The notes: generated by a model not told the origin, from the sequence alone. DNA of 64,000 nt from an uncultured Phascolarctobacterium sp. (GCF_905212365.1 NZ_CAJMEH010000002.1:6683-70682); one strand, 5' to 3'. Positions 4,208 to 54,501 are shown, counted from the stretch's first letter. Made by a program: numbers and translations.

Positions 4208-4259
4208 ATCTTAAAAAAAATCATTTTGACCTTCGTAGGTTGTAGAATATGCAAATCCC

Positions 4260-4811
4260 TTATAAATAATTTGGGGAGGTATTTAAATCATTGTTTTGCA
4301 AAATATTCTCAATACATTCCTCAAAAGTAAGCGAACAAAGCCGATGGTCATGATGTCCGTCAATATCCGTACAAAAAATTATCTCCGGCTTGATGTCAAT
4401 AATAAGCTCTGTAAGATCTTCACATAAACCGGCATAATTAGTTAAGCTGTGACGCTTTGATTTCTCCATTCTGTATTCTTGCTTCATCGTACAGCCATAG
4501 GTATAATAGCCATTTTTACCTAATACTGGCTCACTAGCATGATAAATAGAATGATCAACTACATCGCTGGCGTCAGGATAGCCTAAAAAATATACTTGTC
4601 GTCTATCTATGCCCAAACATTCCAAGGAAGCCAATGCCTCTTGCAGACGCACAGCGGCATGAGCTGCAAAATCTCCGTTAGTCAAAAAGCACACCTGTAC
4701 TTCAGCTCCCAACTCCACTAATAACGGCAACAAACCTCCCATTAAATTAATTTCATCGTCCTCATGCGGTACTAGTATCAATATTTTCTTATTGCCATGT
4801 AAGTTCAGCAT
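4260..4811 (-). CDS. PIG-L/LmbE family N-acetylglucosaminyl deacetylase
   Basis: N-terminal ILILVPHEDDEINLMGG and downstream HHDH (HxDH) motifs characteristic of the LmbE/PIG-L zinc deacetylase fold. Confidence 0.7.
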   Translation of the reverse strand: MLNLHGNKKILILVPHEDDEINLMGGLLPLLVELGAEVQVCFLTNGDFAAHAAVRLQEALASLECLGIDRRQVYFLGYPDASDVVDHSIYHASEPVLGKNGYYTYGCTMKQEYRMEKSKRHSLTNYAGLCEDLTELIIDIKPEIIFCTDIDGHHDHRLCSLTFEECIENILQNNDLNTSPNYL

Positions 4812-4824
4812 CTTATAATCTCCG

Positions 4825-5992: not shown

Positions 5993-6007
5993 TGCTCTAT
6001 CCCAACC

Positions 6008-7312: not shown

Positions 7313-7325
7313 TTAAACAGCTTTT

Positions 7326-10137: not shown

Positions 10138-10864
10138 ACAGTTTCAAATACTTCATCATCGTATAAATAAAATGCTGTAAGCTGGAATATAATCCGCTCC
10201 AGCCATCCACAAATCCCAGCTGCAAAAAATACGCTCTCAAAAAGCCATACGCCGCATGCCCAAAACATGCGGCCAACGAAGTTTTTTTGCCGCGTTCGTA
10301 ATTATCCTGCGCCCAAATCGTCGTATAATTGCCAGCTTTATCCCACCATTGCTGCCAACAAGTATAAGTATAATGCTCAATGAAGCCTTTTAATTTTTCT
10401 TTTGGCAAATCACAAACCGGATGCTCATGTACTTTATTTACCCAATGCACTTTATCAGAGGGAAACAGTCTTAATACTTCGTCAGGTTTAAAAATGCCAT
10501 GCATATATGTAAATCCAAAGGCATGAATTTTTCGCATCATACTATATTGTTTTATTTTGTGATTTGCAGCAGCAGCTTTTATAGCAGAACAAAGTTCTTG
10601 ATTAAGCCTTTCATCAGCATCTAAATACAATACCCATTCCGTAGCGATATGCTGCAAAGCAAAGTTACGCTGCGCAGAAAAATCATCATCCCAAGCGCGA
10701 TAGATAACGCGCGCTCCGTTTGCTTCCGCTAGGGGCACAGTCTTATCCGTACTGCCGGAATCGACTACTAGCACGCAATCTGTAAGCTGCCGCGCGTTTT
10801 GCACTACGTCGGCTATATTCGCTTCTTCATTTTTAGTTAGTATCACAACGCTTAATTTTGACAT
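10118..10864 (-). CDS. GT2 family glycosyltransferase, WaaE/KdtX-like LPS core glycosyltransferase
   Basis: SVVILTKNEEANI...VVDSGSTDKTV...DDDFSAQRN is the canonical GT2 N-terminus of WaaE-type enzymes. Confidence 0.75.
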   Translation of the reverse strand: MSKLSVVILTKNEEANIADVVQNARQLTDCVLVVDSGSTDKTVPLAEANGARVIYRAWDDDFSAQRNFALQHIATEWVLYLDADERLNQELCSAIKAAAANHKIKQYSMMRKIHAFGFTYMHGIFKPDEVLRLFPSDKVHWVNKVHEHPVCDLPKEKLKGFIEHYTYTCWQQWWDKAGNYTTIWAQDNYERGKKTSLAACFGHAAYGFLRAYFLQLGFVDGWSGLYSSLQHFIYTMMKYLKLYELQNK

Positions 10865-10882
10865 AAATGTTATCCTTTGCTC

Positions 10883-12391: not shown

Positions 12392-12427
12392 GTTTTGTCA
12401 CCTTATAAGCTTTTTTAATTATAATAT

Positions 12428-12898
12428 TCACAGCTCTTTGAAAGTTTTTATATGCACTATCCATTCGCCTTTACGGTCGGACCCCTGACGTTCCAATAGC
12501 TTTTGCATCTTTAATGAACGTATAGCTCTCGTGACGTGGCTTCGGCTAAGGTTTATATCATTGCACAACTTCAAAATTGTACTTTGAGGATGCCTCTTAA
12601 AATATTGCAAAACTGCTTTTTCTACATCATTCAAGCTATCATTTTCAGTCTCATTTTCACTTTTAGTCTCACTTGATTCTAAAAATGCAGGATGAATAAA
12701 AATGGTAGACGTAAAAGAAAGTCTATCGTCGTCCGTTTCAAAAAGCGGCTTAGGCGATCCGTTAGCTTCCAAAGCGTTTAATATTTTTCTAAAGCCGGTA
12801 TTACGGTACGGCCAAATACCCTTAGCCGCTTGCGCCAGCGCGTCGTTCTTTACACCTTTACTTGACTCTAGTATAATATAAATATAGTTGATTATCAA
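12428..12898 (-). pseudogene. truncated paralog of the upstream regulator, keeping only the C-terminal HATPase_c_4 tail and the HTH
   Basis: The 156-aa ORF ends ...LERQGSDRKGEWIVHIKTFKEL. The last 15 aa and a 47-bp DNA stretch (12457..12503) are identical to the 3' end of 10883..12391 (10889..10935). It lacks the AlbA_2 N-terminus. Confidence 0.5.
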
Positions 12899-12917
12899 GG
12901 AAAAGAGAGTTAATTGA

Positions 12918-12981
12918 GCATAAAAAAAGAATAAAAAGCAGGACGCTATGTTAAAAATATAATCACCATAGCGCCCTGCTT
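12918..12981 (-). terminator. rho-independent terminator downstream of the second EptA-like gene
   Basis: 15-bp stem (aagcaggacgctatg / catagcgccctgctt, one mismatch) followed on the minus strand by a T-rich run. Confidence 0.5.
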
Positions 12982-12993
12982 TTATCTTATTTA

Positions 12994-14779
12994 TTAAATA
13001 TGCGTATGCCCGGCATTGGTTAATAAATCCTCCCGGCGGTATTTAAAATTCGGCGAAGCCAGCGAATTGGTTTCGTCAAATTTATTGGACTGCACGTTAA
13101 AAACGCTGCACAATAATTCATACGCTAAATCGTTGGTCCAATATAAATTTTGGTGTTGGCGCAGCGTTTCCACCACGTTTTTATTTTTAGCGATGTATTC
13201 GTCAGAAAAATAAGTCACTAGCGGAATGCGCACACTGCCCATGCCGTCGAAATTAGGCGAGCGCCGTCCGTCCGGAACCGTGGCGTGGTCGGAAAAATAA
13301 ACCATCGCCTGCAGGTTTAATTTTTCCTGGGCGTAAGCGAAAATTTTGCTCAAAACATAATCCGTATACGCAATGGAATTGGCGTAATTTAATTCTAATT
13401 CATATTTGCCGGGCGTACCGAATTTAGTAAATGCTTCTGGATAACGATTGAGAAAATTAAAGTGGCTGCCTTTAAGATGGATAACGACGAAATTGTTGCT
13501 CTGCGGGTCTACCTCGTCTAAAAAATCCAAGAGCGATTCATCATACTGCACAGTATTTAATTGCTGCTTCGTCCACTTCGCCACGTCGGCGGTATCGGCA
13601 ATTAAAGTTACCGGCGTATCTGCCGAGCCCAAATGGCCCTGATTACTATACCAGTGAATCCTGTACCCCCCCCAGTGCACGCACTACATCTATGATGGAG
13701 CAGGCTTCATAAAATTTTTTATCGTTATACTGATTGATTTCCGTCAACGCATTTGATACGGCCAAAACTGTATTGGCGCCGATGGAATAAGCGTTAGGGA
13801 AAATAATGCAATTCGACATTTCGTTGAGTTTATTCAGCCACGGCGTCGTGTTGTGCGGATACGCCGGGTTGACAGCTTGCATATAATCGCGCGATGCCGA
13901 TTCGCCAATCACCAGCAAAATGGTCGACGGCTTGGCAAACTTTTCCGCTAACGGCTGCACCGTTAAATTTTTAATGCGCTCCCGCATATTAGATTTGTAT
14001 AATTTATTAGTTTCCAAATAGGTTTTGACGTCCAAATAAAATTCCACGATGGCGGTACGAATAAATACGCCGTGCTTTTTCTTCCACAAGTAGCAAGACA
14101 AAAAAGCTACGATAGCCGCTAAAATTGCCACAGAATATAAAGACAACGGCTGCGTTTGCGTCAACGCGCCGTAATTTGCCCAGCTGCACACGCCTATCAT
14201 TAAGACAACGCCTAACACCGAAAAAATATTGTACGCCAAAGGCAGGGATTTAAAATATTCGATGATCTCATTGTAATGCGTTTCTTGCAGCATCTGCATA
14301 CCGTTTTCGTTGATGCAGGCTTTATACAAAGCGAAATAACCTAACTGCGCCAAGGGTATCAATAAGAAAATTATTTCCAGCACAGTTATAACAACAGCTG
14401 CAGGCAGTGCCAACGCAGAAATTTGCCGTGCCAAAATCCCCAAAGACGATATCCAGCTGATAATATACAAACCAAAAACAGCCTCAAAATGAAATTCAAA
14501 ATCCGAAGACACCTTATGATTGCTGATATAATACAGAGTTGGATATGTTAATATCCACAGCCAGCAAATAATAGTGGGAATAACAAATAGTGGTGAAGAC
14601 AGCGGCAGCTGTGTGACAGCCGCAGGCAGCAGCGCCAAAATAGCGCAGGGCACAAAACGGCGCATCTGCAGATAGGTTGCTTTATTTCCAAGGCCATGGG
14701 AAATTGCAAAATAATAACCATATGACAAAATATAAAACGCAATGGCAACATAGATATAAGCATCATACATGATAAGCAT
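12994..14779 (-). pseudogene. second EptA-like phosphoethanolamine transferase, frameshifted at a G8 tract into ORFs 13646..14779 and 12994..13680; putative phase-variable gene, currently OFF
   Basis: The upstream ORF has the membrane domain plus KPSTILLVIGESASRDY. The downstream ORF begins HWGGYRIHWYSNQGHLGSADTP and contains HLKGSHFNFLNRYP. A G8 tract on the coding strand sits exactly at the junction. Removing one G gives ...DVVRALGGYRIHWYSNQG..., which aligns colinearly with the intact paralog (DIAKKAGYKTYWFSNQG). Confidence 0.75.
13666..13673 (-). repeat. homopolymeric G8 tract (C8 on the plus strand) at the frameshift site of the EptA-like gene
   Basis: Plus strand reads ctgtacccccccc agtgcac; counted directly. 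Confidence 0.9.
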
Positions 14780-14880
14780 TAATCCTTTCTAAATTAAGTA
14801 TGAATATTCTTTATAAATTAAATCCATTAATATTGTATTACAGATGCAGTGGATAGTCAATTACGCATATAGCAAAGACC

Positions 14881-14917
14881 CAAAAAATAAGAGCCTTCGG
14901 ATTTCTCCAAAGGCTCT
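14881..14917 (-). terminator. rho-independent terminator immediately downstream of the partial tRNA-Ser copy
   Basis: Stem agagcctt / aaggctct with an 11-nt loop, followed on the minus strand by TTATTTTTTG. Confidence 0.55.
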
Positions 14918-14930
14918 AAAACCGCATGGT

Positions 14931-14989
14931 TGGCGGAGTGGGTGGGATTCGAACCCACGCACGGGGTAAACCGTCTAACGATTTAGCAA
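14931..14989 (-). repeat. 59-bp partial copy of the 3' end of tRNA-Ser(GCU): T-arm, acceptor 3' strand and CCA. Direct repeat of 16607..16665.
   Basis: Identical to the intact tRNA over 59 nt (tggcggagtgggtgggattcgaacccacgcacggggtaaaccgtctaacgatttagcaa), then diverges. Confidence 0.8.
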
Positions 14990-15120
14990 CTCACGCCTGC
15001 CCATTGCATTGCTTCTAGGCACTCTTTTATTTCCATATTTTCAACTGGTTTAGATATATTATAAATTAATTCTATATTTTACACATATTCGTCGAAGATA
15101 AGCCCCCTAAATCACCTATC

Positions 15121-15540
15121 TTAAGAGATACCATCCTCAATAGCTTCTTTTTCATGAAAAGATTTTACCGCCGCAACGAATCCATTGGCTTCATCTACTA
15201 ATTTCAGCACATCTTCTTCAGATAGCTCAAAATAGTCATCGTAATCACTCATTGAGCGACTTGCAAATAGATTAGAAATTGTATCAGACAAATCCTTCCC
15301 AAAAACACCATTCTTAACATAGTGCATTCTGAAATACGATATCACACCAGAATGCTTAGAAAAATCTTTCCCATCAGTAGCTAAAACAGAACGCATAGCA
15401 TGAAACACAGCATAATAAGCCCTATTGACAGCCCCACGACTATCTCCTATGGCAAGCAGTGCATTTGCTGCCTTAAGGCATTGGTGCGCCTGCTCTAATC
15501 TAAGGCTAGCAAGACTCCGCTTCTCCTCATCATGCAGCAT
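15121..15540 (-). CDS. HEPN domain protein, toxin component of a HEPN/MNT pair
   Basis: 139 aa. Overlaps the upstream nucleotidyltransferase by 11 nt. RAYYAVFHAMRSVL is the HEPN helix pattern. Confidence 0.75.
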   Translation of the reverse strand: MLHDEEKRSLASLRLEQAHQCLKAANALLAIGDSRGAVNRAYYAVFHAMRSVLATDGKDFSKHSGVISYFRMHYVKNGVFGKDLSDTISNLFASRSMSDYDDYFELSEEDVLKLVDEANGFVAAVKSFHEKEAIEDGIS

Positions 15541-15871
15541 AAACCACTACACCATCCTTCTCGATATTTTGGTAAAAAGGTAAAATAGGTTTTCTAGCAT
15601 GGAATGCCTTCTTATCCAAAAGAAACATTGACAACAAAATATCGTGTTCCAATCCTACACGGCTGAAGATTTTATTTAATGTCCAAAGTATTTTCCTGTT
15701 CTCTTCTGGCTCCATATTCGTTAACACCAATACATCCACATCAGACTCCTCGGTATTATCGCCGCGAGCATAGGAACCATACAAAACTACTTTGTCGAGC
15801 TTATCACCCAAAAGATCATAAATCTGCTCGGTCAGCTCTTTTAAAACAATATCTAACTCACTACGTTTCAT
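15530..15871 (-). CDS. minimal nucleotidyltransferase (MNT) antitoxin
   Basis: VVLYGSYARGDNTEESDVDVLV is the G[SG]x9-13Dx[DE] nucleotidyltransferase motif. Confidence 0.8.
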   Translation of the reverse strand: MKRSELDIVLKELTEQIYDLLGDKLDKVVLYGSYARGDNTEESDVDVLVLTNMEPEENRKILWTLNKIFSRVGLEHDILLSMFLLDKKAFHARKPILPFYQNIEKDGVVVYAA

Positions 15872-15983
15872 AGCAATTTCCTCCTTGCAGACCTATTTCT
15901 ATAATAATTATACACTTACTTCACATTACCAGCAAGAGAAAAGTCTTTGACAATACGATATTCAAAACTCTTGACTAAATAAC

Positions 15984-16292
15984 TCATAAGCCTAATTCCT
16001 TTTCCAAATTAGCGAAAACTTCAGAAGCAGGCTTTACTCTACCTGCGAGCACATCCTGATATCCCTTTTCCAAAGCTTCATCAAGTTCGGCTTCTGTCAT
16101 TTTACTCATATCCAGCGGATGCCTATATGGTATTTTAACATCAAAAGGAATTCCTCTTTGCAGGATAATTTGCTTATAAAACATATTAATGGCGTTCGAT
16201 ACAGGAGTCCCTAAAGTCGATAAAATTTCTTCAGCTTGTTTTTTCACATCTGGCTCAATTCGAGCATAAAGATTTGCAGTTTTGCTTGCCAT
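15984..16292 (-). CDS. RelB/DinJ family antitoxin, orphan: no cognate toxin ORF is adjacent
   Basis: MASKTANLYARIEPDVKKQAEEILSTLGTPVSNAINMFYKQIILQRGIPFDV is the DinJ ribbon-helix-helix family. The track ORF extends to 16358 through an implausible N-terminus; the likely start is the ATG at 16292. Confidence 0.65.
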   Translation of the reverse strand: MASKTANLYARIEPDVKKQAEEILSTLGTPVSNAINMFYKQIILQRGIPFDVKIPYRHPLDMSKMTEAELDEALEKGYQDVLAGRVKPASEVFANLEKELGL

Positions 16293-16552
16293 ATTATCAA
16301 CTCCTCTACCTGTTAGCTTCTTTTTCTTTATTATACATATTTGTAAGTACAAAAGCAATACTAATGTAGATGCTTTGTGTAAGAAAGCTCAAAACTCTAA
16401 GAGTTAAGAGAGCATCCATACAGAATCGCCAAATTGATATTCCTTGCGTTATTTCTAAGATAATGGATTTTTTATCATAAGCCCCACGTGTATAAAACTT
16501 AATACAAATTACTCTCAGTTATACAGCTAATACTCCATCTTTTCTTTTGCTA

Positions 16553-16594: not shown

Positions 16595-16606
16595 CGTTTA
16601 TTGTGT

Positions 16607-16698
16607 TGGCGGAGTGGGTGGGATTCGAACCCACGCACGGGGTAAACCGTCTAACGATTTAGCAAACCGTCCTCTTCAGCCAGCTTGAGTACCACTCC
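16607..16698 (-). tRNA. tRNA-Ser (anticodon GCU), 92 nt, encoded CCA
   Basis: Hand-folded. Acceptor stem GGAGTGG / CCACTCC, anticodon loop TTGCTAA, long variable arm, T-arm GTGGG-TTCGAAT-CCCAC. Confidence 0.85.
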
Positions 16699-33580: not shown

Positions 33581-33729
33581 ACAATTAAATTCAAATATAA
33601 TACTATAATCACAGCCGACAAACTTTTTTCACAGGGTAAAAACAGCATTTATCCTTAATTTAATCTGAAATAAGCCGTCTAGCTCGTTTATACTACTTAT
33701 TTCTGCTTGTTTGATAATTTTCTCGCGTT

Positions 33730-39128: not shown

Positions 39129-40406
39129 CTACAGATTTCCTATAATTCGTAAATAAAATTCATCGCCGCCATAGACGTACTCGGCGCTCAGGAATTCGTG
39201 AATGCGGTACCGCACACCAAATTCATTGCGGTCGTCTCCCGAAAAATGCTCAGCACGCAAGCGCCACTTGGGGCTTAAATTATATTCCAGCCGGTAATCG
39301 TTATCGCCTATGGGCATCCGCCGCATATAGCTCCACACGCTTTTACCCCAATAGCGGGCATAGCCTGCGCCGAAGCGCCACTCTACGTCGTCCAGAATAA
39401 CCTCCGCTTCGCCGAAAGCCTCGTCCCGCGGCGAAATAAACTTGCCTATATGCGCCTTGCCGGAAAGGTTATCGCTATCGCGGCCAATATCGCCGTAACC
39501 CTCGAACCACAGCTTATAATCGTCCGAATTAATCATAATATTCACGCCAAGATTAGCGCCCGGCGTGAGCCGTACCGACGGCTGTAAATGAAATTTCTGC
39601 ACTGCCGTTTCCGCCAGCAGCTTATCCGTCAGCATTTGCTCCAGCTCGGCCTTGTGGGCCTGCACATAAGCTACCGGCAGCCCCCGCAGCCTGTCGCATT
39701 CAGACAGGTACTTATATTTCAGCTCCATAAGCAGAATATTAGGAATGGCTTCGCTGCGCAGCTCGTATTTAATATTGCTCACCAGCTGCCCTACGGGATA
39801 AATAACCACCTGCACTACGGTACTTTGCCTATCCTGCACCACGTCCACAGCCGCCTTAAATTCCGGCAGCCGTTCTTCTACCTGCTGCCGCGCCATTTTA
39901 CGCAGCACGCCGCCGGCCCAATCGCCTGCGTCCTCGGACGCGCCGCTGATGGCCTGCTCCAGCTCCCGCTTGAGCGACGGTATCCGCTGCTGCAGCAGCT
40001 CCGCTGTCTGCGGCTCCACGCCGGAAAACTGCAGATCCACTGTCGGCTGGCTGATAATCCTGTTCCAGGGCCTGGCATAAAGCACAATCTCAGTATGCGC
40101 GCCCGGCTGCAGCCGCACCTCGCTCAGCTCGTAGCCCGTAAAAACACGGTCGCCTATTTCCGTCAGCAAGCGTTTATAATCCTCTCCGGCGGCGGCTACT
40201 TTAGCAACGTCCTTGTCCAAAAAAAGCTGGTCGGCGACCACCTGCATACTGCCGCTCATTTTATCCAGCAGGATCTGGCTGGTGCCGCCGTTAACGTCCA
40301 CCACCTGCACGCTGACATTTTCAATTTGCGCAGAAAAAGCTTGCTGCAATGGCAAGCATGTCATTGCAGCAAGGATTAAAATTGTATTCAGCTTCATTAC
40401 AGCCAT
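39129..40406 (-). CDS. hypothetical secreted, probable outer-membrane protein
   Basis: Signal peptide MAVMKLNTILILAAMTCLPLQQAFSA. The C-terminal 150 aa are rich in alternating aromatic/Gly beta-strand patterns. Located between skp and bamA. Confidence 0.35.
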   Translation of the reverse strand: MAVMKLNTILILAAMTCLPLQQAFSAQIENVSVQVVDVNGGTSQILLDKMSGSMQVVADQLFLDKDVAKVAAAGEDYKRLLTEIGDRVFTGYELSEVRLQPGAHTEIVLYARPWNRIISQPTVDLQFSGVEPQTAELLQQRIPSLKRELEQAISGASEDAGDWAGGVLRKMARQQVEERLPEFKAAVDVVQDRQSTVVQVVIYPVGQLVSNIKYELRSEAIPNILLMELKYKYLSECDRLRGLPVAYVQAHKAELEQMLTDKLLAETAVQKFHLQPSVRLTPGANLGVNIMINSDDYKLWFEGYGDIGRDSDNLSGKAHIGKFISPRDEAFGEAEVILDDVEWRFGAGYARYWGKSVWSYMRRMPIGDNDYRLEYNLSPKWRLRAEHFSGDDRNEFGVRYRIHEFLSAEYVYGGDEFYLRIIGNL

Positions 40407-40417
40407 CGCCCCACAGC

Positions 40418-42559
40418 TTAGAACTGTCCGCCAAAGCTAAAGTGGAACTTGCCGCCGTCCTCACCGTAGCCATAATCCAGTTTAACAGGGCCCAAAGGAG
40501 AATTGATGCGCAGGCCCACGCCGTAGCTGTTCTTAATCAGGCCGAAATCAAATTCATCCTCATGGCGTTTATCCCAAGCGTAACCGTTATCGGTAAAGAG
40601 TACGCCCTGTACCTTTTTGACAATGGGGAAGCGGTATTCCAGCGTGGCCTTAACCATGCTGTTGCCGCGGAACTGATCGTCCTCGTAGCCGCGCAGGGTA
40701 TCGCTGCCGCCCATGGAGAAGCGCTGGCTCAGCGGCATATCGCCGTCGGCATAGCCTGCGCCCAGGTTCAAAGCCCAAACGCTTTCGCCGCCAGCACGGT
40801 AATAGTAGCGGTAGTCGGCGGTAAATTTAGTAAAGTCAAAATCGCCGCCCAGACCGCCGGCCCACTCTAAGCTGTAGCCGATACGTTTGCCCTCGTGGGG
40901 GTCGTAAATATTATCGCGGGAATCGAAAACGCGCCCCAGCGTAATACTGCGCGTCGTACCGAAGTTTTCCTTACGGCGTTCTTCGGCAGTTGGCGGCATC
41001 CAGCTTTCTTCGAATTTACCGCTTTCGTTAAACTGGTCCTCATAATATTGGTCTTTATCGTCTTCGTAGCCGTCAGCTTCGCCCTTATAAATATCCTCGC
41101 GGTTTTTCAGAGTAACGTAATTGCTTACATACTCGTTATTGGTTTTGCGGCTGAAAGTAATTTCCTGGCCGCGGCGCTTTTTATCATAACGCGCAATTTC
41201 GTCGCCATGAATATCATAGTCGGCGTATTCGTTAGTAATATCGTACAAATTCAGCGTAGCGCTGGTTTCCTTATTGTCAATCCACGGACGGGTATAGCTG
41301 AAATCATAGTTCTTGTTATCCTCGCCGCCAAACTCCCAACGGATATTGATTTTATCGCCGGTGCCGCGGAAGTTCTTATCGCCAATGGAAATCATACCGA
41401 CAAAGCCGTCGGCGTTGCTGTAGCCTGCGCCAATGCCGAAAGTACCGGTATTCATTTCCACTACCGAAATTTCTACCTCTACGGAATTAGGCTCGCGGCC
41501 GGGGTTCAGCTTAATATTAACGTCTTCAAAATAGCCCAGGTTGTACACGCGCTGCATACTGCGGCGAGCATCCTTGGCGTTAAAGGGCTTACCCTTTTTC
41601 AGCTTCATTTCGCGGGTAATGACGTAATCCTTACATTTTACATTGCCCTTTACCTTGAAGTCCTCAACAATGCCCTCGTTGACAGTCACGTTCAGCGTAC
41701 CGTCCTGCTCCATATGCACGTCCGTTACGCGCGCCAGAATATAGCCGTTGGAACGGTATTCCTCCTCCAGCCTCTGCACGCTTTTATTGATTTGCTTCAA
41801 ATTGGCGACCTTGCCCTGCTCCAGGTCAAAGCAGGCGTCCACCTTTTTGCTGTCGATAACCGTATTGCCCTGCACCTTAACGGACTTATACACGGGGTTT
41901 TCCAGCACATGGTAAATAACCTGCACGCCCTCCGGCACAGCTTTAAATTCCGGATGCAGATCGTAGAACCAGCCCATATCGTAAATGGCGCTCAAGTCCT
42001 CCGTCAGTCCGGCTTCCGTAAATTCCATACCGGGTTTAGTCTTCAGCACCGCTAAAACCTCCTCTTCGGGAACGGTAGCGTTGCCTTCGATTATCTGCTT
42101 GGTAATGGTTTTGCCCACATACGGCTCCAGCCTGTTTTCTTCTTGCTTCTGCTCCTGAACGGCAGCTGCTTCTGCCGCAGGCTCCTGCACAGCTTCGGCT
42201 GCAGGCTCTGCTTGCTTCTCAGGCTCCTGCGCCTTTTGCGCGTCAGATTCCGCCGACACGGCAGCAGCCTCGGGCTCGTCTGCGGGAGCTGCCGCAGCTG
42301 CGTCGGCAGGCGCTGTATCCTTCTGAGCGCCGGCTGCAGCCGCAGTCTGGGCAGCGTTTTCACGCGCCGCAGCAGCGTAGGCTGTTTCCACGGAGTCCGT
42401 TTCTGCAGCAGACTCCAGCACGGCTGGCGGAGTCGCAGCCTCCGCAATTTGTATATCATCAGCATAAACCGGCAAGCCCAGCAGCATTGCTGCCAAGCCC
42501 ACCCTCAAAGGCTGCCGTAGGGTTCTTTTCATCAATGGATTATCCTCCTTGCGCTTCAT
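40418..42559 (-). CDS. bamA: outer membrane protein assembly factor BamA (Omp85) with an N-terminal Ala/Glu/Pro-rich low-complexity extension
   Basis: POTRA-like repeats and a C-terminal beta-barrel ending ...KFHFSFGGQF (terminal aromatic). 713 aa. Confidence 0.85.
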   Translation of the reverse strand: MKRKEDNPLMKRTLRQPLRVGLAAMLLGLPVYADDIQIAEAATPPAVLESAAETDSVETAYAAAARENAAQTAAAAGAQKDTAPADAAAAAPADEPEAAAVSAESDAQKAQEPEKQAEPAAEAVQEPAAEAAAVQEQKQEENRLEPYVGKTITKQIIEGNATVPEEEVLAVLKTKPGMEFTEAGLTEDLSAIYDMGWFYDLHPEFKAVPEGVQVIYHVLENPVYKSVKVQGNTVIDSKKVDACFDLEQGKVANLKQINKSVQRLEEEYRSNGYILARVTDVHMEQDGTLNVTVNEGIVEDFKVKGNVKCKDYVITREMKLKKGKPFNAKDARRSMQRVYNLGYFEDVNIKLNPGREPNSVEVEISVVEMNTGTFGIGAGYSNADGFVGMISIGDKNFRGTGDKINIRWEFGGEDNKNYDFSYTRPWIDNKETSATLNLYDITNEYADYDIHGDEIARYDKKRRGQEITFSRKTNNEYVSNYVTLKNREDIYKGEADGYEDDKDQYYEDQFNESGKFEESWMPPTAEERRKENFGTTRSITLGRVFDSRDNIYDPHEGKRIGYSLEWAGGLGGDFDFTKFTADYRYYYRAGGESVWALNLGAGYADGDMPLSQRFSMGGSDTLRGYEDDQFRGNSMVKATLEYRFPIVKKVQGVLFTDNGYAWDKRHEDEFDFGLIKNSYGVGLRINSPLGPVKLDYGYGEDGGKFHFSFGGQF

Positions 42560-43041
42560 TTAGAGTTGCTCAACTCTAATCGTGCCGACTGTACCAGTCT
42601 GTGCATATCGGCTTTAGATATATTAACCTGCTGCTTTTCAGACGCTGCCGCCTGAGCAGGAATATCCTGCTTAACTATTTTTTCCACAACAACCGCCTTG
42701 ACAGGCGCTGCCTGCCGTACCGGCACAACCGCAGAAGCTGCCGTATGTGCTTCTGCCGGAGCCGCCACGGCTCTGCGCTGTAAATAATGGTCCTTGGCGC
42801 AATACCAGCCGCCGAAGCCCGTCAGCACTAGCAGCACTGCGGCACAGGCCGCCAAAAGATGGCGGTTCCAGCTCCAGGGAACGTCCTTTTTCCGGCGCAG
42901 GTTTTTCAGCTCGGCTTCCGCCAGCATCAGGTCAAGCTCGCCGCGAATATCCTTATTGTCCAAAAAGCTGCGTTCCGCATTATCCAAGCTGCTTTTAACG
43001 CAGCGGATACGCTGAAACAGCGAACGGCTTGAGCGCTCCAT
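42556..43041 (-). CDS. putative membrane-anchored anti-sigma factor
   Basis: 161 aa with a cytoplasmic N-terminus, one TM helix (LLAACAAVLLVLTGFGGWY) and a periplasmic tail. Immediately downstream of the sigma factor. 4-nt overlap with the bamA start. Confidence 0.35.
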   Translation of the reverse strand: MERSSRSLFQRIRCVKSSLDNAERSFLDNKDIRGELDLMLAEAELKNLRRKKDVPWSWNRHLLAACAAVLLVLTGFGGWYCAKDHYLQRRAVAAPAEAHTAASAVVPVRQAAPVKAVVVEKIVKQDIPAQAAASEKQQVNISKADMHRLVQSARLELSNSK

Positions 43042-43206
43042 AGTAAAACCCCTTTCTGCCGGAATAAAATAAGCTAAATAACTATACTTACAATAATCAT
43101 CTGCGCCGCTTATATTTTTACGGCTCGTTTTCGCAGATTTTTCCTGTTTTAAAGCGATTTACGCTGAAATACTTCTGTTTACTCAATAAATGCACTTATA
43201 AATAAA

Positions 43207-43872
43207 TTATTCCTTATTAAAATCGTGCATAAAACGGGAAAGCATGCCGCGAATACGGCGCACTCCCTGCTTCTGCAGACGGTACACATGCCCCAGACTG
43301 ACATCTATAGCCTCGGCCACGGCCTGCGCGGGCCTGTCCTCCAGATACATACCCTGCAGCACCTGCTGTTCCTTAGCAGGCAGGCGGTCCATAGCCTGAG
43401 CCACTTTTTCCTGCAGCAGCTTACGCTCAGCCAGCTCCGTAGGCGAAGCCAGCGCCGACGGCAGCGCGTCGCTTAAAGTAAAGCCCTGACCGATATCGCT
43501 GTCCAGATACAGCAGTCCCTTGTCCGAGCTGCGGCGCAGATAATCCACCATACTGCCTTTAATACGGTAGGTAGCAAACAGGCTGAAGGCTACCTGACGC
43601 TTATAATCGTAATTTTCCGCTGCCTCCAGCAGGCCAACCATACCTTCCTGGATAAGCTCCAGCGTTTCTGCCTCCGGCAGCTTAAAGCCGACAGCCAGCT
43701 TAAAAACCAACGGCTGATAAGCCGTCATCAAGCGCTGGTGCGCCGCAAAATCGCCCGCCGCTGAACGCTCCCACAAAGCGCGTTCCTCCTGCGGCTCCAG
43801 CAGCGGCGTTTTGCGCAGCTCATCCAAATAGCTTTGCAGCATGCTTCCACCTCCCCTCTTACTGGTTATCAA
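43207..43872 (-). CDS. RNA polymerase sigma factor, sigma-70 family group 3 (FliA/SigF-like)
   Basis: Region 2 (LVFKLAVGF...LIQEGMVGLLEAAENYD) and region 4 HTH (LPAKEQQVLQGMYLEDRPAQAVAEAIDVSLGHVYRLQKQGVRRIR). Confidence 0.7.
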   Translation of the reverse strand: MITSKRGGGSMLQSYLDELRKTPLLEPQEERALWERSAAGDFAAHQRLMTAYQPLVFKLAVGFKLPEAETLELIQEGMVGLLEAAENYDYKRQVAFSLFATYRIKGSMVDYLRRSSDKGLLYLDSDIGQGFTLSDALPSALASPTELAERKLLQEKVAQAMDRLPAKEQQVLQGMYLEDRPAQAVAEAIDVSLGHVYRLQKQGVRRIRGMLSRFMHDFNKE

Positions 43873-43878
43873 GCAAAA

Positions 43879-46800
43879 TTAAAAGCTGATTTTATATTCC
43901 AAGCCGTACCAATCTTCCGTATCCGACATATCGTAGCTGCGGGAGTAAGTAATATTAAAATGCCTGCTAATATCGTACTGCCCGAAAACACTTCTGTCAA
44001 GAGCGTCAAAGCTGGTTGTGTAACCTATCATCAATTTATCGTTCAGATATTTACTTACCAATACATTGTACTGGTTGCGCTCGTCCGGCGTAAGCTCCTG
44101 ATTGCGGTCTTTAGAGCTTTCAAAGCCGATACCGGAACGCACCTTGCCCGTATAAATGCGGAACTGGTCCAAGCCCAGCGTTTGCTTAACCCATGTTTCC
44201 ACGTCGCCCAGCACCGTCATTTGCAGGCCCACGGTCATCAGGTTATTCATGTCCTCGGACGTGACCTCGTTGCTGCCTGCCGTATCGCGCTGCAGCGTCA
44301 GCATTCTGATAATGGTATTGCGCTCCATGGGCGGATCGCTCTGCAGCTGCAAATCCATATTTTCCACAGGTCCGTTAATCTTCATAAAGATATTATAACG
44401 GCTGAAGCGAGCCGTGCTTTCCAGATTAACATTGGGCAGGAAGCTTCCCGGTTCAATCCAGTTCAGGCTTGCCTTATTCAGCTTAAAGTCGGTACGCAGA
44501 TAAGTAACGCTGCCCTTCTCCGCCCGAATCGTTCCGTCGATTAGCGGATACTTGCTGCTGCCTTTAATCTGAATGCCGCCGCCCAGCCAAATATCGTATA
44601 AATAGCTGTTATACAAATGAATTCTGCGCCCTAAATCCACGCGCATATCAAGTCCGATATTGCTTTCGCCCTCGCCCAGCTCCGGAATAGTCGGCATATT
44701 TACCAACACGTCGTCCAAAAGCACGCTGCCCTTAACCAAAGGACGATAAGCCATGGGAGGCGGCGCGTTATTGCTGCGCGGCTTACTAAAGTCGCGGTAT
44801 TTTTGCGGCTCGATAGTCACGTCGCTGTTAATGCTTCCGGTAAATATCTGGGAGGCAATTTCCGCATTCTTAGCCATAATATGCAGGCTGTAGCCTGTAT
44901 CCATGGACGTATTCAGCGCGTAGCTGCCCTCGGCAGCCAGCGTACCCTTGCCTAATTTAGTGGAAAGGTCGCGCAGCAGCACCGTATTACCGTTAAAATC
45001 AACGTCCAGGTTAATATTTTCCAGCACCGTATCTATATATTTCAGTTTTACCGCGCCTTCGGTAATCTTCAAAGAGCCAAAGAGCAAGGGCTCCTCCAAG
45101 GTACCGGCTAAACGTACCTGTCCCTGGGTATCGCCCACGCCCCATTCCACCATTTTGGTCATGGCCGGTAAAATTCCCATACGCGCCTCGTTCAAATCCG
45201 CAATAATATTCATCTGCGCGTGAGGATTGCGGCGCTGCTCCCGCGAGCGGAACAAATCCAAAGGAATATCGCCCTCGGCCTTAACGCCGTAGGCGTCCTT
45301 AACGGCAGAAAATTGCTGCAAATGGATATTATCATTATTCAGCGACAGCATAGCGGTTAACCGGTCTATGCTGACTCCGGCCACAGAGCCGTCGGCGATT
45401 TCCAAAGAGCCTGTTCCCTGAGGCTCGTCGATAGTGCCGCCCAGCTTCACCGTCATATCCATTTCGCCCTTAATCTCCGGCGGGTCCTTCATTACCGCCG
45501 TCACAATCGCCGGGTTAGCCTTGACGGAGGACAACGCCATATCCATGCCTTTCTTGCGCAAATCTATGCGTCCGTCGGCAACAATCAGGCCACGGTCGCT
45601 GACATCCTTTTGCTCCTGCAGCTTGACGTTATCAAAACTTACAATACCATTTTGCAGATGGCCGTTAAAATTCATATGGGCATAATTCAGCTCATGTATT
45701 TTAACGTCGTCGGCATTAACGGCAATGGTAATACCGCTGCCCTTGCCCTGCGGGTTAAAGCTCAGCTCGCCCTGCATCTGGCCGTTAATATCATAATCCT
45801 GCCGCGCCATACGCAGCAAACCGCCAATATCGCCCCATGCCATCAGCACCTTACCCTGTACAAAGCGCTGCACAGTATCGATATTGATATCGGCGCTGTA
45901 AATGCCATAGTTAAGCGGGTCGTCCTTATAAGGCTGCTTAAAGGATACCTGAAAAATATTTTTTTCTTTAGCGTTGCTGTCCAGCGTACCTTGCAGCTCG
46001 GACAGCACCTCGCCGTTAATGTAAATTTTTTCGCTGGCAATATCGCCGTTAAAGGTAGGACTGTTCAGCACGCCGCCTAAATGGCCCTTGGCGTCCAGCA
46101 AGCCGTCTAAATCCACAGTTTCATCTTTAATGGGCAAATGGGCCAAATCCACATTCTTAGCGTCCATATTAAAATCCAGACGCTGATCTGCCGTCATTAC
46201 GCCATCCAGCTTAATGCTGGCCAGGAAGGCCTGGATAAGGAAATTGTGCAGCTCCAGCCTGCCGTCCTCATAAATATAGCGCCCCGATACGCTGTTAAAC
46301 AGCTGCTTGGCCGCACTGCCGTCCGTAGCGTGAACCTCGCCATACACGGACGGATGGCTGACCGTGCCGCTGAGCTGCATAATATTATCCAAATTGCCCG
46401 TTACCGAAGCATCCGGCGCCAAAAGCTGCATAATGGGCTCGATGCGCACGCCCTGAGTTTCCAAGGACAGCTCGAAGGCAGGCTCCTCGCCGCGCAAATC
46501 TATGCTGCCGTCCAGGAAATGCTTGCCCTGTTCCATATTTGCCACCAGATTTTTAATCGTCAGCACATTGTCCTTCAAGCTGATAAAGCCGTGAGCCTCG
46601 TCAATCTTCTGCTTCAAAAATTCAGCCTGCGTTAGCTGTACCATACCGGAAAATTCCGGAGCCGTCAGCTTGCCGCCGATGGCAAAGCCCGTGGAGCACA
46701 GGCCGCTGGCTTCCTGCCCCGCCGCGATATCCAGCAAAGGATTTATGGGGAAATCGGCCATGCGTCCCTGCAAAGCCACCGTGCCGTCCTTCGCCACGCT

Positions 46801-48168: not shown

Positions 48169-48340
48169 CTATACTTCACCAGCCGTAAATCCTCCAAAAG
48201 TACCGTTTCAGACAACCACTGTACAGCCTGCCTGAACGTAAGCAAAATTTTCGCTAAGCCTATAGCTAGACTTTTATTATTTCGACATTACGGCTATTCT
48301 TCCTCTTTATTTCCAATTATTTCACAAATAGGCGAATAAA

Positions 48341-48379
48341 CGCAAAAAAATAACCGGCAAAGCAGCTTCCTTGCCGGTT
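48341..48379 (-). terminator. rho-independent terminator downstream of tolC
   Basis: Stem aaccggcaa / ttgccggtt with a 10-nt loop, followed on the minus strand by TTATTTTTTTG. Confidence 0.6.
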
Positions 48380-48402
48380 ATCAGTTGCATATTCAAAGAT
48401 AT

Positions 48403-49806
48403 TTATTCTGCCGCCTTTTCAGCGCCTGCTTCAGCTTGCTCAGTCTTAGGAGCCTCTACGCTGATTTTTGTCGGGAACGCCATAGGTACGCCGATAGCGG
48501 TTTCCAGAGAGGTCTTGGAGGTATTGTAATCATACAAGGCCTGCAAATAGTTTGTCTTAGCCGTGGTCAAAGCCACCTGCGCGTCCAGCACGTCGGTGTT
48601 GGTGCCCACGCCGTTCATGTAACGCAGCTGAGCGATACGGTAATCCTCATCAGCCTGGTCAACTGCCAGATGCGTAGCGTCGATACGCTTTTCAGCTTCG
48701 CGCAGGCTTAAATAATTAGTACGCACGTCCAAATTTACAGAATCAACTTTATCGCGATAGGTTTCATGAGCCTTAGCCAAATCAGCCTCTGCACCGTGAA
48801 TCCTGGAATTGGTCACGCCGGTATCGAATAAATTCCAGTTGACATTCAGTCTAACGTCCCAGTTACCGTTTTCATCACCAGGCCAATTAGTATTGTTCCA
48901 GTTTTGGCTGGCGCTGGCTGTAACTTGCGGCATATGACCGGAAATGGCTACGCGCAGCGCGCCTTTAGCGGCTTCTACATTCTGCTTAGCCTGCTCCAGC
49001 TCCGGACGGTGTTCGGACGCATAATTCAAGCAAGCCTCCAAATCCTTATCGTAAGGCGTATAGACTAAAATATTATCCAGCTTGAGCTGGGTATCCATGG
49101 GCAAGCCCACGATTTTATTCAGATTAGCTTCGGCGATTTGATAATTATTTTCGTACTGAATCAAGGTCTGCTTGGCGTTGGCCAGCTCTACCTGGCTGCG
49201 CAGCACGTCGACCTTAGCGACAACGCCGACTTCATATTGCGCTTCGACGTTTTTCAGATGGTCGGCCAGCTGCTCCACGGACTCGCGTCCCAAGTCCTGC
49301 ATATTGCCGGCCTGCAGCATATCGAAATAACCGTTGGTTACGGTAGAACGCATATCGTTGTAAGCCTTTTGCACGCCTTCTACCGTATACAGGTAGTTAG
49401 CCTTAGCCTGTTTAACTGTACCGCTCAACTTGCCGCCAGTGTAAATAGGAATAGAAGCCGTCAAGCTATTAGAATGAGTATTGCCAATGGCTTTATAATA
49501 TTCACCTGTCCAAAAGCCGTCGGGGTTCGTTTTTCTTACAACATTATCGTCGTAACCGCTGCGCTGAGTACTGTGATTAGCGCTGATGGTAATACCGCGG
49601 CTTTGGCGGGCGGCGTTGTAATTAGCGCGTGCGCTGTCGCGTTCATACCCGGAGATAGTAATCGCGGGGTTGGTATTAAAGGCGCGCTCCATGGCGTCCT
49701 GCAAATTCAGCTCCACGGTTTCACCGGCAAAAGCTGATTGGCACAGCAGCAAAGATACGGCAGCCGACAGAGTCAGCAATCGTTTACTTAATTTATGTCC
49801 ACTCAT
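48403..49806 (-). CDS. tolC: TolC-family outer membrane efflux protein
   Basis: Signal peptide and two OEP repeats (coiled-coil/beta-barrel periodicity). 467 aa. Confidence 0.8.
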   Translation of the reverse strand: MSGHKLSKRLLTLSAAVSLLLCQSAFAGETVELNLQDAMERAFNTNPAITISGYERDSARANYNAARQSRGITISANHSTQRSGYDDNVVRKTNPDGFWTGEYYKAIGNTHSNSLTASIPIYTGGKLSGTVKQAKANYLYTVEGVQKAYNDMRSTVTNGYFDMLQAGNMQDLGRESVEQLADHLKNVEAQYEVGVVAKVDVLRSQVELANAKQTLIQYENNYQIAEANLNKIVGLPMDTQLKLDNILVYTPYDKDLEACLNYASEHRPELEQAKQNVEAAKGALRVAISGHMPQVTASASQNWNNTNWPGDENGNWDVRLNVNWNLFDTGVTNSRIHGAEADLAKAHETYRDKVDSVNLDVRTNYLSLREAEKRIDATHLAVDQADEDYRIAQLRYMNGVGTNTDVLDAQVALTTAKTNYLQALYDYNTSKTSLETAIGVPMAFPTKISVEAPKTEQAEAGAEKAAE

Positions 49807-52818: not shown

Positions 52819-54501
52819 TTATTTGCTTACCTCTAAGACAATCTCCTCTTCGCCGTCAATGATAAAATCAAAGGGATATTTCTGCTTAAATGGCGAACCC
52901 TGCAGCAGTCCGGCCAGCCCCGCGTCGTTCTGCATCATTTCAGGGTTCATCTGGCCCGTGGCGATGTCGATAATCAGCTCGTTATTTTTATCGGCGTTAT
53001 TAACGCTCCTGACAAAATCGCCCAAGGTGCGGCGCGTTTCCTTCTTCTGCTGCGCCGCAGGCACGCCCTCCTCCTGCTGCTTGCGCAAAAGGTTCATAAC
53101 CCAGGCCATGCTGCTGCCGCCGCGCACATTCAGCGCTAAACGGCCGCCGGGATGGTCCTTGGGCACTTTAAAATATACTGTTTTAGTAAATTCTGCGCCG
53201 CGGTAGGGCTTCATTACCACCTCAACGGCAGCTTTATCGCCGGGCCTTACGTTTTTATTGACGGCCCTCACGCTCTGGATTTCGGCCACCTGCACCTGCT
53301 CGCTGACCTCGGCCTCCACAGTGATGCCGTAAATGTTGACCGGCTCAAATTTATTCTGCATTAAAATATTTACTGCTTCCATCAGCTCCACATTCACATT
53401 TTTTAGCAGCGAATCGCTGGAATAAAACATATTTTCCCTGTCGATATGCAGCATTTGCTTCTTACTGTCCACGCCAGTAATAATAAAATGCAGCTTGGCC
53501 GTACCGCCGCCGTTGCGGTCCACAGCCTTGCTCAGCGTATTGATAACGGCGGCGTCCACAATAGTAGGCACCAGCATTTCATCCTCCACCAGCCGCACGC
53601 GAATGCTGGTTCCCTGGCCGCGGCTGCTGTCGTTGACCGTAACAAATAAGGGTATGGTTTTGGGCTGCGTTCCCTGCTTGCCGCCGATGCCGCTGGCGCG
53701 GTCCTGAGTAAAGCTGCCCACAGCCTCGCCCATATTGCCCACCTTATAGCTGCTCTGCATATTAGGCACTACGCCCAATACCCACACCTTGTTCATAAAG
53801 AAATTGCTGTCGCCACGCTGCATAAAGGGATGCCCGAAGGCCAGCACCCGGCCGGAGTCGTCCGTCCAGGTGACGGTACCCATAGCGCCCAAAGTCAAAT
53901 CTCCCTGCATGAGCGAAGCGCCCACCGCGCTGCCAGGCTGCAAAGAGCCTGACGCAGCGGCACTCGTACCGCCGCTGCCCACAGCCTCCAGCCCCAAAGG
54001 TTTAAGCTTTTCCTGCAAATACGCCAAGCCGTAGTCCGTAAAGCCTCCCGCTAACAGCGAGGTCCCTTTGGTCAACCAGCCCGCAGGCAGCGGACGCGGC
54101 TTATCCAGCAAGGGCAGCATACTGCCGATAGACGTCAAAAAGCAATAATGAGGGTCGTTAAAGGTGCGGCCAAAAGCCACAGCTCCCACTAAACGCCCGT
54201 CAACATACACGGGGCTGCCGCTCATTCCCTGAGCCACGCCGCCGGTCTTTTCAATTAAATCGCCGTAAAGACGTACAAAAATGCTGTAGCCGGTGGCTTC
54301 GCTGCCGCTGACGCCCAAAATTTCCACGTTAAAGTTTTCAATAGTATCGCCGCTGATAACGGTTTTGCCCACTCCCTGCATTCCCGGCCGCAAATCGCGC
54401 ACAGGCATCAGGGGAACATTGGCAGCCGCTGCCGCCAGCATTTGGCAGCACAGCAGTAAGGCTATCACAAATATTTTCATATAAACTCCTATATACCGCA
54501 A
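52819..54501 (-). CDS. SpoIVB-like S55 family serine peptidase
   Basis: The catalytic-serine motif GVAQGMSGSPVYVDGRLVGA matches the SpoIVB GxSGSP motif. Signal peptide present. 560 aa. Confidence 0.5.
   Translation of the reverse strand: MRYIGVYMKIFVIALLLCCQMLAAAAANVPLMPVRDLRPGMQGVGKTVISGDTIENFNVEILGVSGSEATGYSIFVRLYGDLIEKTGGVAQGMSGSPVYVDGRLVGAVAFGRTFNDPHYCFLTSIGSMLPLLDKPRPLPAGWLTKGTSLLAGGFTDYGLAYLQEKLKPLGLEAVGSGGTSAAASGSLQPGSAVGASLMQGDLTLGAMGTVTWTDDSGRVLAFGHPFMQRGDSNFFMNKVWVLGVVPNMQSSYKVGNMGEAVGSFTQDRASGIGGKQGTQPKTIPLFVTVNDSSRGQGTSIRVRLVEDEMLVPTIVDAAVINTLSKAVDRNGGGTAKLHFIITGVDSKKQMLHIDRENMFYSSDSLLKNVNVELMEAVNILMQNKFEPVNIYGITVEAEVSEQVQVAEIQSVRAVNKNVRPGDKAAVEVVMKPYRGAEFTKTVYFKVPKDHPGGRLALNVRGGSSMAWVMNLLRKQQEEGVPAAQQKKETRRTLGDFVRSVNNADKNNELIIDIATGQMNPEMMQNDAGLAGLLQGSPFKQKYPFDFIIDGEEEIVLEVSK

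Follow-up and report, generated by a model that had tools for sequence, protein, structure and literature searches.

Why does a sigma factor gene sit between tamB and bamA, in the middle of a cluster of genes for outer-membrane biogenesis? We address this question in a 64-kb stretch of DNA (64,000 nucleotides) from an uncultured Phascolarctobacterium sp., a gut Firmicute (GCF_905212365.1, NZ_CAJMEH010000002.1:6683-70682), called the window throughout, to which all coordinates refer. A preliminary description had placed a sigma-70-family gene and a small open reading frame (ORF) for a single-pass membrane protein between tamB and bamA, and this is borne out, all on the minus strand. The first gene encodes a genuine alternative sigma factor, termed sigma here. 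The small ORF is the Phascolarctobacterium representative of sonB, a gene known from other Negativicutes. We tentatively propose that sigma and SonB constitute a dedicated regulatory module of the outer-membrane biogenesis cluster, ancestral to the Negativicutes, and rate the chances of this reading as a little short of even.

How widely is the arrangement kept? An exhaustive search of 1.8 billion representative proteins returned about 43 clusters of sigma relatives with E<1e-30, the full-length members of which (~195-220 amino acids, aa) align end to end; weaker matches grade into ordinary sigma factors and align in two separate stretches. The named hosts are Phascolarctobacterium, Succiniclasticum, Megasphaera, Anaerospora, Sporolituus, Dendrosporobacter, Pelosinus, Pelorhabdus, Lucifera, Anaerosporomusa and ‘Veillonellales’ metagenome-assembled genomes (MAGs), and a protein identical to that of the window is encoded on MAG contig NZ_JAUNOQ010000010.1. 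Among the 120 closest homologues listed, identity is 74-99% for sigma and 57-93% for the corresponding SonB homologues; judging from such comparisons, sigma is under strong constraint. In all, 89 loci were read (88 fetched and the window). They include a scan of 80 GTDB species loci, nearly all from Acidaminococcales, while deeper lineages were reached through representative proteins and contig look-ups. Every contig of the 80 that is long enough has tamB directly 5' of sigma, and the small ORF, bamA, a 425-aa gene, skp and lpxD on its 3' side. The order tamB-sigma-sonB-bamA recurs in Megasphaera, Sporolituus and Anaerospora, and also in three metagenomic lineages (L086, L087 and L089) whose sigma proteins show an identity of only 35-41%. 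A SonB signature, GEL(D/N)L..A(E/Q)A, is found 3' of sigma in 84 of the 86 records, with looser forms in L086, L087 and L089. The arrangement singled out in the preliminary description is conserved in every outer-membrane cluster locus with a sigma of this family that extends far enough, and the small ORF, for which a lack of conservation had been envisaged, is strongly conserved and always accompanies sigma inside the outer-membrane cluster.

One locus among the 89 departs from this pattern. A 221-aa sigma relative with 38% identity (L088:8001-8666) lies on a 12-kb metagenomic contig without a SonB-like neighbour, in a phage-like or mobile-element gene set that comprises many small uncharacterized ORFs, a pentapeptide-repeat protein and an RNA ligase/kinase/phosphatase fusion. 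No relatives came to light when a viral collection was scanned.

Every sizeable gene in the window is on the minus strand. Read in that direction, the cluster runs mlaE, mlaF, mlaD; tolC; tamB; sigma; sonB; bamA; the 425-aa gene; three copies of skp/ompH; lpxD; a lipid A acyltransferase gene; lpxC; fabZ; lpxA, an outer-membrane cluster of the kind that Negativicutes typically have. The preliminary description had the order sigma, small ORF, bamA, ..., skp, lpxD right. The features on which the argument draws are as follows.

48403-49806, minus strand: tolC
48349-48382, minus strand: intrinsic terminator 3' of tolC, strong, a 14-bp stem followed by a T run
48281-48304, minus strand: promoter-like motif upstream of tamB, AGGAAG-N11-TGTCGAA
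43879-48168, minus strand: tamB, AsmA-like protein of 1429 aa (Pfam TamB, AsmA and DUF748), first gene of the tamB-sigma unit
43207-43842, minus strand: sigma-70-family gene, 211 aa (Pfam regions 1.2, 2 and 4)
43042-43206, minus strand: AT-rich sigma-sonB spacer, 165 nt
43092-43122, minus strand: promoter-like motif upstream of sonB, CGTAAA-N18-GATTAT
42556-43041, minus strand: sonB-like gene, 161 aa, SonB by position and family, candidate anti-sigma factor
40418-42532, minus strand: bamA, an Omp85 protein with POTRA domains (Pfam), its start placed by start-codon comparison
39129-40406, minus strand: sonA-like gene, 425 aa, in the position of the POTRA-bearing barrel protein SonA
33604-33632, minus strand: second motif of the sonB type, GTGAAAAAAGTTTGTCGGCTGTGATTATA, in the fabZ-lpxA gap

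The terminator at 48349-48382 sets the tamB-sigma transcription unit apart from tolC. The sigma ATG is 8 nt past a GGAGG and 36 nt past the tamB stop. An end coordinate of 43872, given previously, corresponds to an upstream TTG extension whose use is not credible: the homologues listed are nearly all 210-212 aa long (with a few longer calls) and family members start ML..YL, both of which fit the ATG at 43842. The 425-aa SonA-like protein has no Pfam match.

What kind of sigma factor is encoded here? Pfam recognizes region 2 (PF04542, 54 bits against a cut-off of 24), region 4 (PF04545, 41.2 against 24.1) and region 1.2 (PF00140, 26.5 against 22). In NCBIfam, only the generic model for the sigma-70/extracytoplasmic function (ECF) superfamily, TIGR02937, passes (92.3 against 42.9). 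The best specific model is FliA_WhiG (TIGR02479), which scores 87.1 against a cut-off of 189.6 and is matched in two separate stretches; the corresponding values are 69.1 against 234 for TIGR02980 (SigB/F/G), 60 against 372 for SigG, 57 against 252 for SigK and 49 against 212 for the SigH-like model PRK08295. The NCBIfam models for RpoH, RpoS and RpoD reach about half their cut-offs or far less, and the only ECF-type equivalog among the top 25 models scores 61 against 353. Every specific NCBIfam model stays far below its cut-off, and a flagellar or sporulation orthologue, an identity that the preliminary description had considered, is essentially excluded.

The best matches among PDB sequences are SigA and FliA, and region 2.4 (RIKGSMVDYLRR) nearly matches that of Aquifex FliA (RIKGAIYDYLRS). 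Neither Pfam nor an AlphaFold2 (AF2) model reveals a sigma-3 domain, and the ~70 residues of FliA region 3 correspond to ~17 residues in sigma. The model, built from a 38-sequence alignment with a predicted local distance difference test score (pLDDT) of 92, consists of a sigma-1.2/2 bundle (residues 1-108) and a sigma-4 bundle (residues 134-210) joined by a 25-residue linker of low confidence. The 50 best Foldseek matches shown are to sigma-32, SigA, SigS, SigB, SigH and FliA and not to ECF factors. The earlier label of a group 3, FliA/SigF-like factor stands as far as the FliA-like region 2.4 is concerned and falls on the missing sigma-3 domain. Membership of the ECF group is only partly matched: the absence of region 3 fits, yet region 1.2 is present and the best specific NCBIfam, PDB and Foldseek matches are FliA, RpoS, RpoH and SigA. 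From this comparison of sequences and models, sigma is best described as a two-domain factor from the group 1-3 lineage, ECF-like in architecture and not in sequence, that makes up a family of its own with no closer named one.

What is its neighbour? The name SonB comes from Acetonema longum, in which it was given to the product of the gene 5' of bamA (F7NM24), with SonA encoded by the downstream barrel gene, in a sonB-bamA-sonA-skp1 cluster (Nat Commun 2026, PMC13018214). In that study SonB is described as a putative outer-membrane lipoprotein with a transmembrane (TM) helix and is co-expressed with BamA and SonA in germination; co-immunoprecipitation of BamA yielded no major partners, and the word ‘sigma’ occurs 0 times (PMC13018214). 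SonA and SonB were reported in all Negativicutes examined except Veillonella parvula and Acidaminococcus fermentans, and their presence does not track sporulation (PMC13018214). The small ORF of the window is homologous to the ORFs in the same position in Sporolituus, Anaerospora and Megasphaera. By position and family, it is the Phascolarctobacterium SonB.

Members of this family are built of four parts. The N-terminal ~55 residues are predicted to be helical and bear the signature NAE.SF......RGELDLMLAEAE (KAWLDKAE......GEL.L.LAQAE in the deepest lineages) and contain an invariant Gly at which the helix may be split. There follow a single TM helix from about residue 62, a variable Pro/Ala/Gln-rich linker predicted to be disordered and, at the C-terminal end, a conserved basic helix of ~20 residues (..MR.LV.SAR.EL). 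In the window protein these parts correspond to a predicted cytoplasmic helix at residues 4-52, a TM segment at ~60-82, a disordered linker at 97-138 and a C-terminal helix at 143-159. Column identity is 0.72 in the N-terminus, 0.65 in the TM segment, 0.25 in the linker and 0.63 in the C-terminus. The mean number of Lys plus Arg residues is 5.0 before the TM helix and 1.9 after it, the N side being richer in 84 of 85 sequences; from this charge distribution the N-terminus is predicted to be cytoplasmic. As a lipoprotein we would accept a protein with a short signal peptide in which a hydrophobic core is followed by the lipobox [LVI][ASTVI][GAS]C, and SonB does not have this form. A lipobox-like LxxC is present in only 27 of the 85 sequences and stands 3-6 residues into the hydrophobic segment, not past its end; in the window protein it is LAAC at residues 63-66, behind the conserved 60-residue N-terminal region. 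Because a signal peptide that is cleaved from a lipoprotein would not be expected to be conserved better than the rest of the protein, we read SonB as an inner-membrane protein. These features point to an N-in topology with a functional cytoplasmic domain, against the published lipoprotein call.

The junction between sonB and bamA required revision. The preliminary description had the two genes overlapping by 4 nt (ATGA) and translationally coupled by that overlap. The overlap exists only for the longest bamA ORF, whose ATG at 42559 has no Shine-Dalgarno sequence and is missing from many relatives, and coupling by overlap is not upheld by start-codon comparison. Directly 3' of the sonB stop, all lineages compared except a Succiniclasticum-like clade have a conserved (A/G)GGAGG with a start codon 7-9 nt further on. 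In the window this pattern designates the ATG at 42532, behind AGGAGG, and bamA gene calls in relatives agree; from there the protein begins with a normal signal peptide, MKRTLRQPL..LLGLPVYA, with a basic N-terminus, a hydrophobic core and an AxA-like cleavage site. The true start of bamA is most likely this ATG, and with it the sonB-bamA gap becomes 23 nt with no overlap. In most loci compared the gap is 13-23 nt and contains only a ribosome-binding site (RBS). The sonB and bamA genes are closely linked and probably co-transcribed. In the Succiniclasticum-like clade (loci L054 and L066) sonB and bamA are further apart, and an almost perfect sigma-A promoter, TTGTCA-N17-TATAAT, lies between them. 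The region upstream of tamB in this clade likewise has an extended -10 sigma-A promoter and not the AGGAWG/GTCGAA motif discussed below. This looks like a clade-wide rewiring of the promoters of the cluster with sigma and SonB kept.

Do sigma and SonB belong together? The rate of change of the cluster proteins was compared across 51 non-identical but related loci, with the mean of the remaining cluster proteins as the control; the analysis is descriptive and yields no valid p-value. Sigma and the SonB N-terminus are each other's best partners (partial r 0.43), and after correction the correlation between the SonB N-terminus and BamA is negative. As a sanity check of the method, the BamA barrel (partial r 0.62) and SonA (0.56) come out as partners of the BamA POTRA region. 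The latter value is also the highest for the SonA-like protein, which covaries most with the POTRA region, as would fit a physical contact between BamA and SonA. The two proteins are retained together as well: in L086 and L089 no SonA follows bamA, and sigma and SonB are both kept. In V. parvula, TamB (Vpar_0526) and BamA (Vpar_0527) have consecutive locus tags, so that no sigma gene can lie between them, and SonA and SonB are reported to be absent from this species (PMC13018214). SonB further has some of the features expected of a membrane-anchored anti-sigma factor, a class defined by binding to the sigma factor, namely a predicted N-in single-pass topology, a conserved cytoplasmic N-terminus and linkage to a sigma gene. 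Covariation, co-retention, co-loss and the conserved cytoplasmic domain together suggest that SonB might be the anti-sigma factor of sigma, an assignment that we put forward as tentative and judge to fall slightly below an even chance.

A number of observations weigh against a sigma/anti-sigma module. Searches of Pfam and NCBIfam with SonB and seven diverse homologues gave no reproducible match, and none to a known anti-sigma family such as ZAS/zf-HC2, RskA, RsgI_N, RseA or FlgM; one NCBIfam ‘antisigma’ match to the window protein (E=0.008), spanning the TM segment and ~10-35 residues on either side, was not reproduced in homologues. A search of PDB sequences found no SonB relatives. SonB has no HxxxCxxC zinc motif, nor any histidine in residues 1-55, and its cytoplasmic part is modelled by AF2 as one long helix rather than as a four-helix anti-sigma domain. 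The covariation rests on 51 related sequences, without a valid p-value, and the TamB N-terminus covaries almost equally with sigma and with the SonB N-terminus (0.38-0.39). Translational coupling is never seen between sigma and sonB; the gene to which sonB is coupled is bamA, in keeping with the published role of an accessory to the BAM machinery. Finally, the Succiniclasticum clade and Megasphaera have sigma-A-like promoters in place of the motif upstream of tamB, yet keep the sigma-SonB pair, and the cluster carries two different non-sigma-A motifs, both of which one sigma factor cannot explain.

Which promoters might the module use? A sigma-70-like promoter was looked for in the 234 nt that precede tamB, and none was found. 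The sequence AGGAAG-N11-TGTCGAA at 48281-48304 is the only exact match in the 64 kb, with 0.02 expected by chance; searches for further sites in the window (≤2 mismatches) and in the 20-kb loci gave nothing credible. A GTCGAA box stands 5' of tamB in 49 of 66 unique upstream regions, nearly always together with an AGGA(A/T/G)G box; the full motif occurs in Sporolituus and a close variant in Anaerospora. FliA-class -10 elements have a CGA core. The tamB motif does not fit sigma-A, and is a candidate for the cognate, autoregulated promoter of sigma. Clear sigma-A promoters in the window, of the form TTGACA-N17-TATAAT, precede tolC, the tRNA genes and a gene for an S55 peptidase.

The sigma-sonB spacer, which is never shorter than 136 nt in the 84 cases measured, has a promoter-like motif of its own with the family consensus TGTGAAAA-N14/15-GATTATA. 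The window copy is weak (CGTAAA-N18-GATTAT, 13.6 bits) and its GATTAT box precedes the start of sonB by 57 nt. Of 81 unique spacers, 71 have a GATTAT-type box at a distance of 25-91 nt ahead of sonB; Sporolituus, Anaerospora and L089 keep a GGATTAT-like box, and Megasphaera has GGATTTTAT. No terminator was detected in the spacer of the window, and an Rfam search of 42400-44000 found no RNA family in it. When a matrix trained on sonB spacers alone was run over the window, the best match was the site at 33604-33632 (23.5 bits), a score also reached by 1 of 10 simple shuffles of the window. The fabZ-lpxA gap is the top match outside the training set in 33 of 49 unique loci, counts that come from related loci and are not independent. 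As the target of sigma, the CGA-containing tamB motif is favoured because of the FliA-like region 2.4 and its position in the operon, and the sonB/lpxA motif because of its wider conservation.

Two further observations concern the spacer. In Phascolarctobacterium (for example L003, L005 and L009) a hairpin is seen by eye just 5' of a GTGAAAA box, with a TAAT loop, no T run and a stem that shows paired substitutions between species (CAGTGC..GCACTG, ACGGC..GCCGT, CAGC..GCTG); it could be an operator or a weak terminator of the tamB-sigma transcript. A Rex/CRP-type operator was considered for the sequence TTGTGAA and rejected, as no second half-site is seen by eye in the sonB promoter of L018 or the lpxA promoter of L005.

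How could such a module work? In the model that we propose, sigma would be made from the tamB-sigma transcript, starting at the conserved non-sigma-A promoter AGGAWG-N11-TGTCGAA, which sigma itself probably reads, giving positive feedback. SonB would be produced as the first gene of the adjacent sonB-bamA-sonA-skp unit and inserted into the inner membrane with its N-terminus in the cytoplasm, where the ~55-residue helix would keep sigma inactive. The flexible periplasmic linker and the conserved C-terminal helix might report on the periplasm, the BAM/TAM machinery or the outer membrane. Expression of tamB, and perhaps of bamA and the lpx genes too, would thereby be matched to the state of outer-membrane assembly. 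Our data show the anatomy of the genes, the domain architecture, the predicted topology, the conservation and synteny, the covariation and the promoter motifs; we infer the binding of SonB to sigma, the signal and the promoter that sigma reads. A bolder version of this model, which we regard as rather unlikely in its entirety, makes SonB an envelope-spanning sensor: its C-terminal helix, carried on a linker of 50-100 residues, would dock on the POTRA domains of BamA or SonA or on TamB, and faltering assembly would free the FliA-derived sigma to switch on tamB and possibly the bamA and lpx operons.

Would the same facts fit a different role for SonB? According to the Acetonema study of 2026, SonB would be a structural or accessory part of the BamA/SonA/TamB machinery. 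It would then not control sigma, which would be a cluster-specific transcription factor regulated otherwise, for example solely through expression from the tamB promoter. The short sonB-bamA gap with nothing but an RBS in most loci and the reported co-expression with BamA and SonA (PMC13018214) agree with this, as do a long linker and a conserved C-terminal helix that could reach periplasmic partners, the covariation of the SonB N-terminus with that of TamB (0.38) and the lack of likeness to any anti-sigma family. It is difficult, on the other hand, to explain why the best-conserved part of a periplasmic or outer-membrane factor should be 55 residues predicted to be cytoplasmic, and the lipobox-like LxxC is both infrequent and placed at the start of the hydrophobic segment. 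BamA brought down no major partners in Acetonema (PMC13018214), SonB is kept with sigma where SonA is absent, and the correlation of its N-terminus with BamA is negative after correction. On balance we consider an exclusively accessory SonB somewhat unlikely. Far less probable is that sigma is an orthologue of FliA or of SigF/G/E/K/H that serves a regulon elsewhere, that its place in the cluster is incidental and that the small ORF has nothing to do with it. Public automatic names (‘FliA/WhiG subfamily’, ‘sporulation-specific sigma factor’) and FliA_WhiG as the best specific hidden Markov model (HMM) speak for it, and it is largely refuted by scores far below the cut-offs, by the missing sigma-3 domain and by a position at tamB/sonB-bamA that is fixed down to 35% identity. 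Moreover, the family is found in the non-motile, non-sporulating genera Phascolarctobacterium, Megasphaera and Succiniclasticum. SonA and SonB, for their part, are present independently of sporulation (PMC13018214).

A further alternative retains sigma as a regulator of the cluster and changes its target. Sigma would drive the sonB-bamA and lpxA operons through TGTGAAAA-N14/15-GATTATA, coordinating outer-membrane protein assembly with lipid A synthesis, the tamB motif would belong to another factor and SonB could be an anti-sigma factor or not. The GATTAT-type box of most spacers, with related boxes in Sporolituus, Anaerospora, Megasphaera and L089, the selection of the fabZ-lpxA gap by the sonB-trained matrix both across loci and as best site in the window, the different look of the clear sigma-A promoters in the window and the persistence of the motif in clades that do not have the tamB motif all argue in its favour. 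Nevertheless, the motif contains a TATA(A/G)T-like hexamer and, in the Succiniclasticum clade, overlaps a perfect TTGCCA-N17-TATAAT promoter, so that it may be a sigma-A promoter to which an operator has been added. The weak sonB copy in the window, the shuffle that equalled the top score, the relatedness of the loci counted and the absence of a CGA core to match the FliA-like region 2.4 also count against it, and we deem this alternative improbable.

Other parts of the window deserve a brief description. A 59-bp sequence from the 3' part of tRNA-Ser(gct) occurs as an exact direct repeat (14929-14987 and 16605-16663, minus strand) on either side of a 1.6-kb islet with an MNT/HEPN toxin-antitoxin pair (15530-15871 and 15121-15540) and a RelB antitoxin-domain protein (15984-16358), which looks like a small element integrated at a tRNA gene. 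Positions 1-16000 have a GC content of 31-41%, compared with 48-56% elsewhere in the window, and include an apparently split sulfatase-family gene (12994-13680 and 13646-14779); since this low-GC block begins next to the tRNA-Ser genes, it was probably acquired horizontally. At the head of the mla-tolC-tamB cluster is the gene for the S55 peptidase, of the SpoIVB type (52819-54501, minus strand), in a genus that is non-sporulating. It is directly 5' of mlaE or tamB in at least three related loci and is probably the counterpart of Vpar_0521, which has been flagged as an unexplained conserved protein of diderm Firmicutes.

What are the implications of the proposed sigma-SonB module? To the question of how outer-membrane biogenesis is controlled in diderm Firmicutes, our analysis contributes a sigma factor found throughout the lineage at a fixed place between tamB and bamA, a plausible partner for it in the membrane and two conserved candidate promoters. 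In a search of the open-access full-text literature, no paper on the Negativicutes outer-membrane cluster discusses this sigma gene. The results on SonB challenge its annotation as an outer-membrane lipoprotein and bear on models of BamA assembly in these bacteria. If SonB were a sensor of the kind outlined above, the pair would represent the first case of an envelope-stress sigma/anti-sigma system in diderm Firmicutes. Such a system would be ancestral in the Negativicutes, would have no relation to RpoE-RseA and, in Veillonella, would have disappeared along with SonA. V. parvula is genetically tractable and naturally has no sigma, SonB or SonA at its tamB-bamA junction, which makes it a clean host for reconstitution.

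How does the pair compare with systems already described? Among the closest known systems is Acetonema longum SonB (F7NM24), which the window protein resembles in its position directly 5' of bamA and in its predicted TM helix. The published account does not mention the adjacent sigma gene (PMC13018214), whereas here the lipobox is unconserved and misplaced and an N-in inner-membrane protein is predicted. With FliA (sigma-28) and FlgM the shared features are the best specific HMM, the near identity of region 2.4 to that of Aquifex FliA and the CGA core of the FliA -10 element GCCGATAA, which is also present in the candidate -10 element GTCGAA; FlgM is, in addition, a helical anti-sigma factor without a defined fold of its own, to which SonB can be likened. 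Unlike FliA, sigma has no sigma-3 domain, a score below half the family cut-off and no flagellar context, and unlike FlgM, SonB is anchored in the membrane and not secreted. SigH of B. subtilis is similar in length (~210-220 aa) and its model aligns with sigma over the whole chain in Foldseek (212 columns), but the HMM score is 49 against 212, and SigH has neither an adjoining gene for a membrane partner nor an outer-membrane context. RpoE-RseA of E. coli, SigW-RsiW of B. subtilis and CnrH-CnrY of C. metallidurans, the last with a short class II anti-sigma domain, all have a sigma factor with sigma-2 and sigma-4 domains, a small N-in single-pass partner (a topology that is predicted here) with a cytoplasmic N-terminal domain and a periplasmic C-terminus, and an envelope theme; a further likely similarity is autoregulation through a promoter whose -10 element contains CG. 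They differ from the present pair in that our sigma has region 1.2 and is nearer to groups 1-3 by sequence and fold, and SonB is without a recognizable anti-sigma domain or zinc motif. The genes, too, are split by a promoter-bearing spacer and not co-translated, sigma standing behind tamB and SonB at the head of the bamA unit. The sigma-SonB pair thus resembles the ECF/anti-sigma systems of the envelope in its logic and differs from them in the origin of the sigma factor, in a partner with no known anti-sigma domain and in the split-operon layout.

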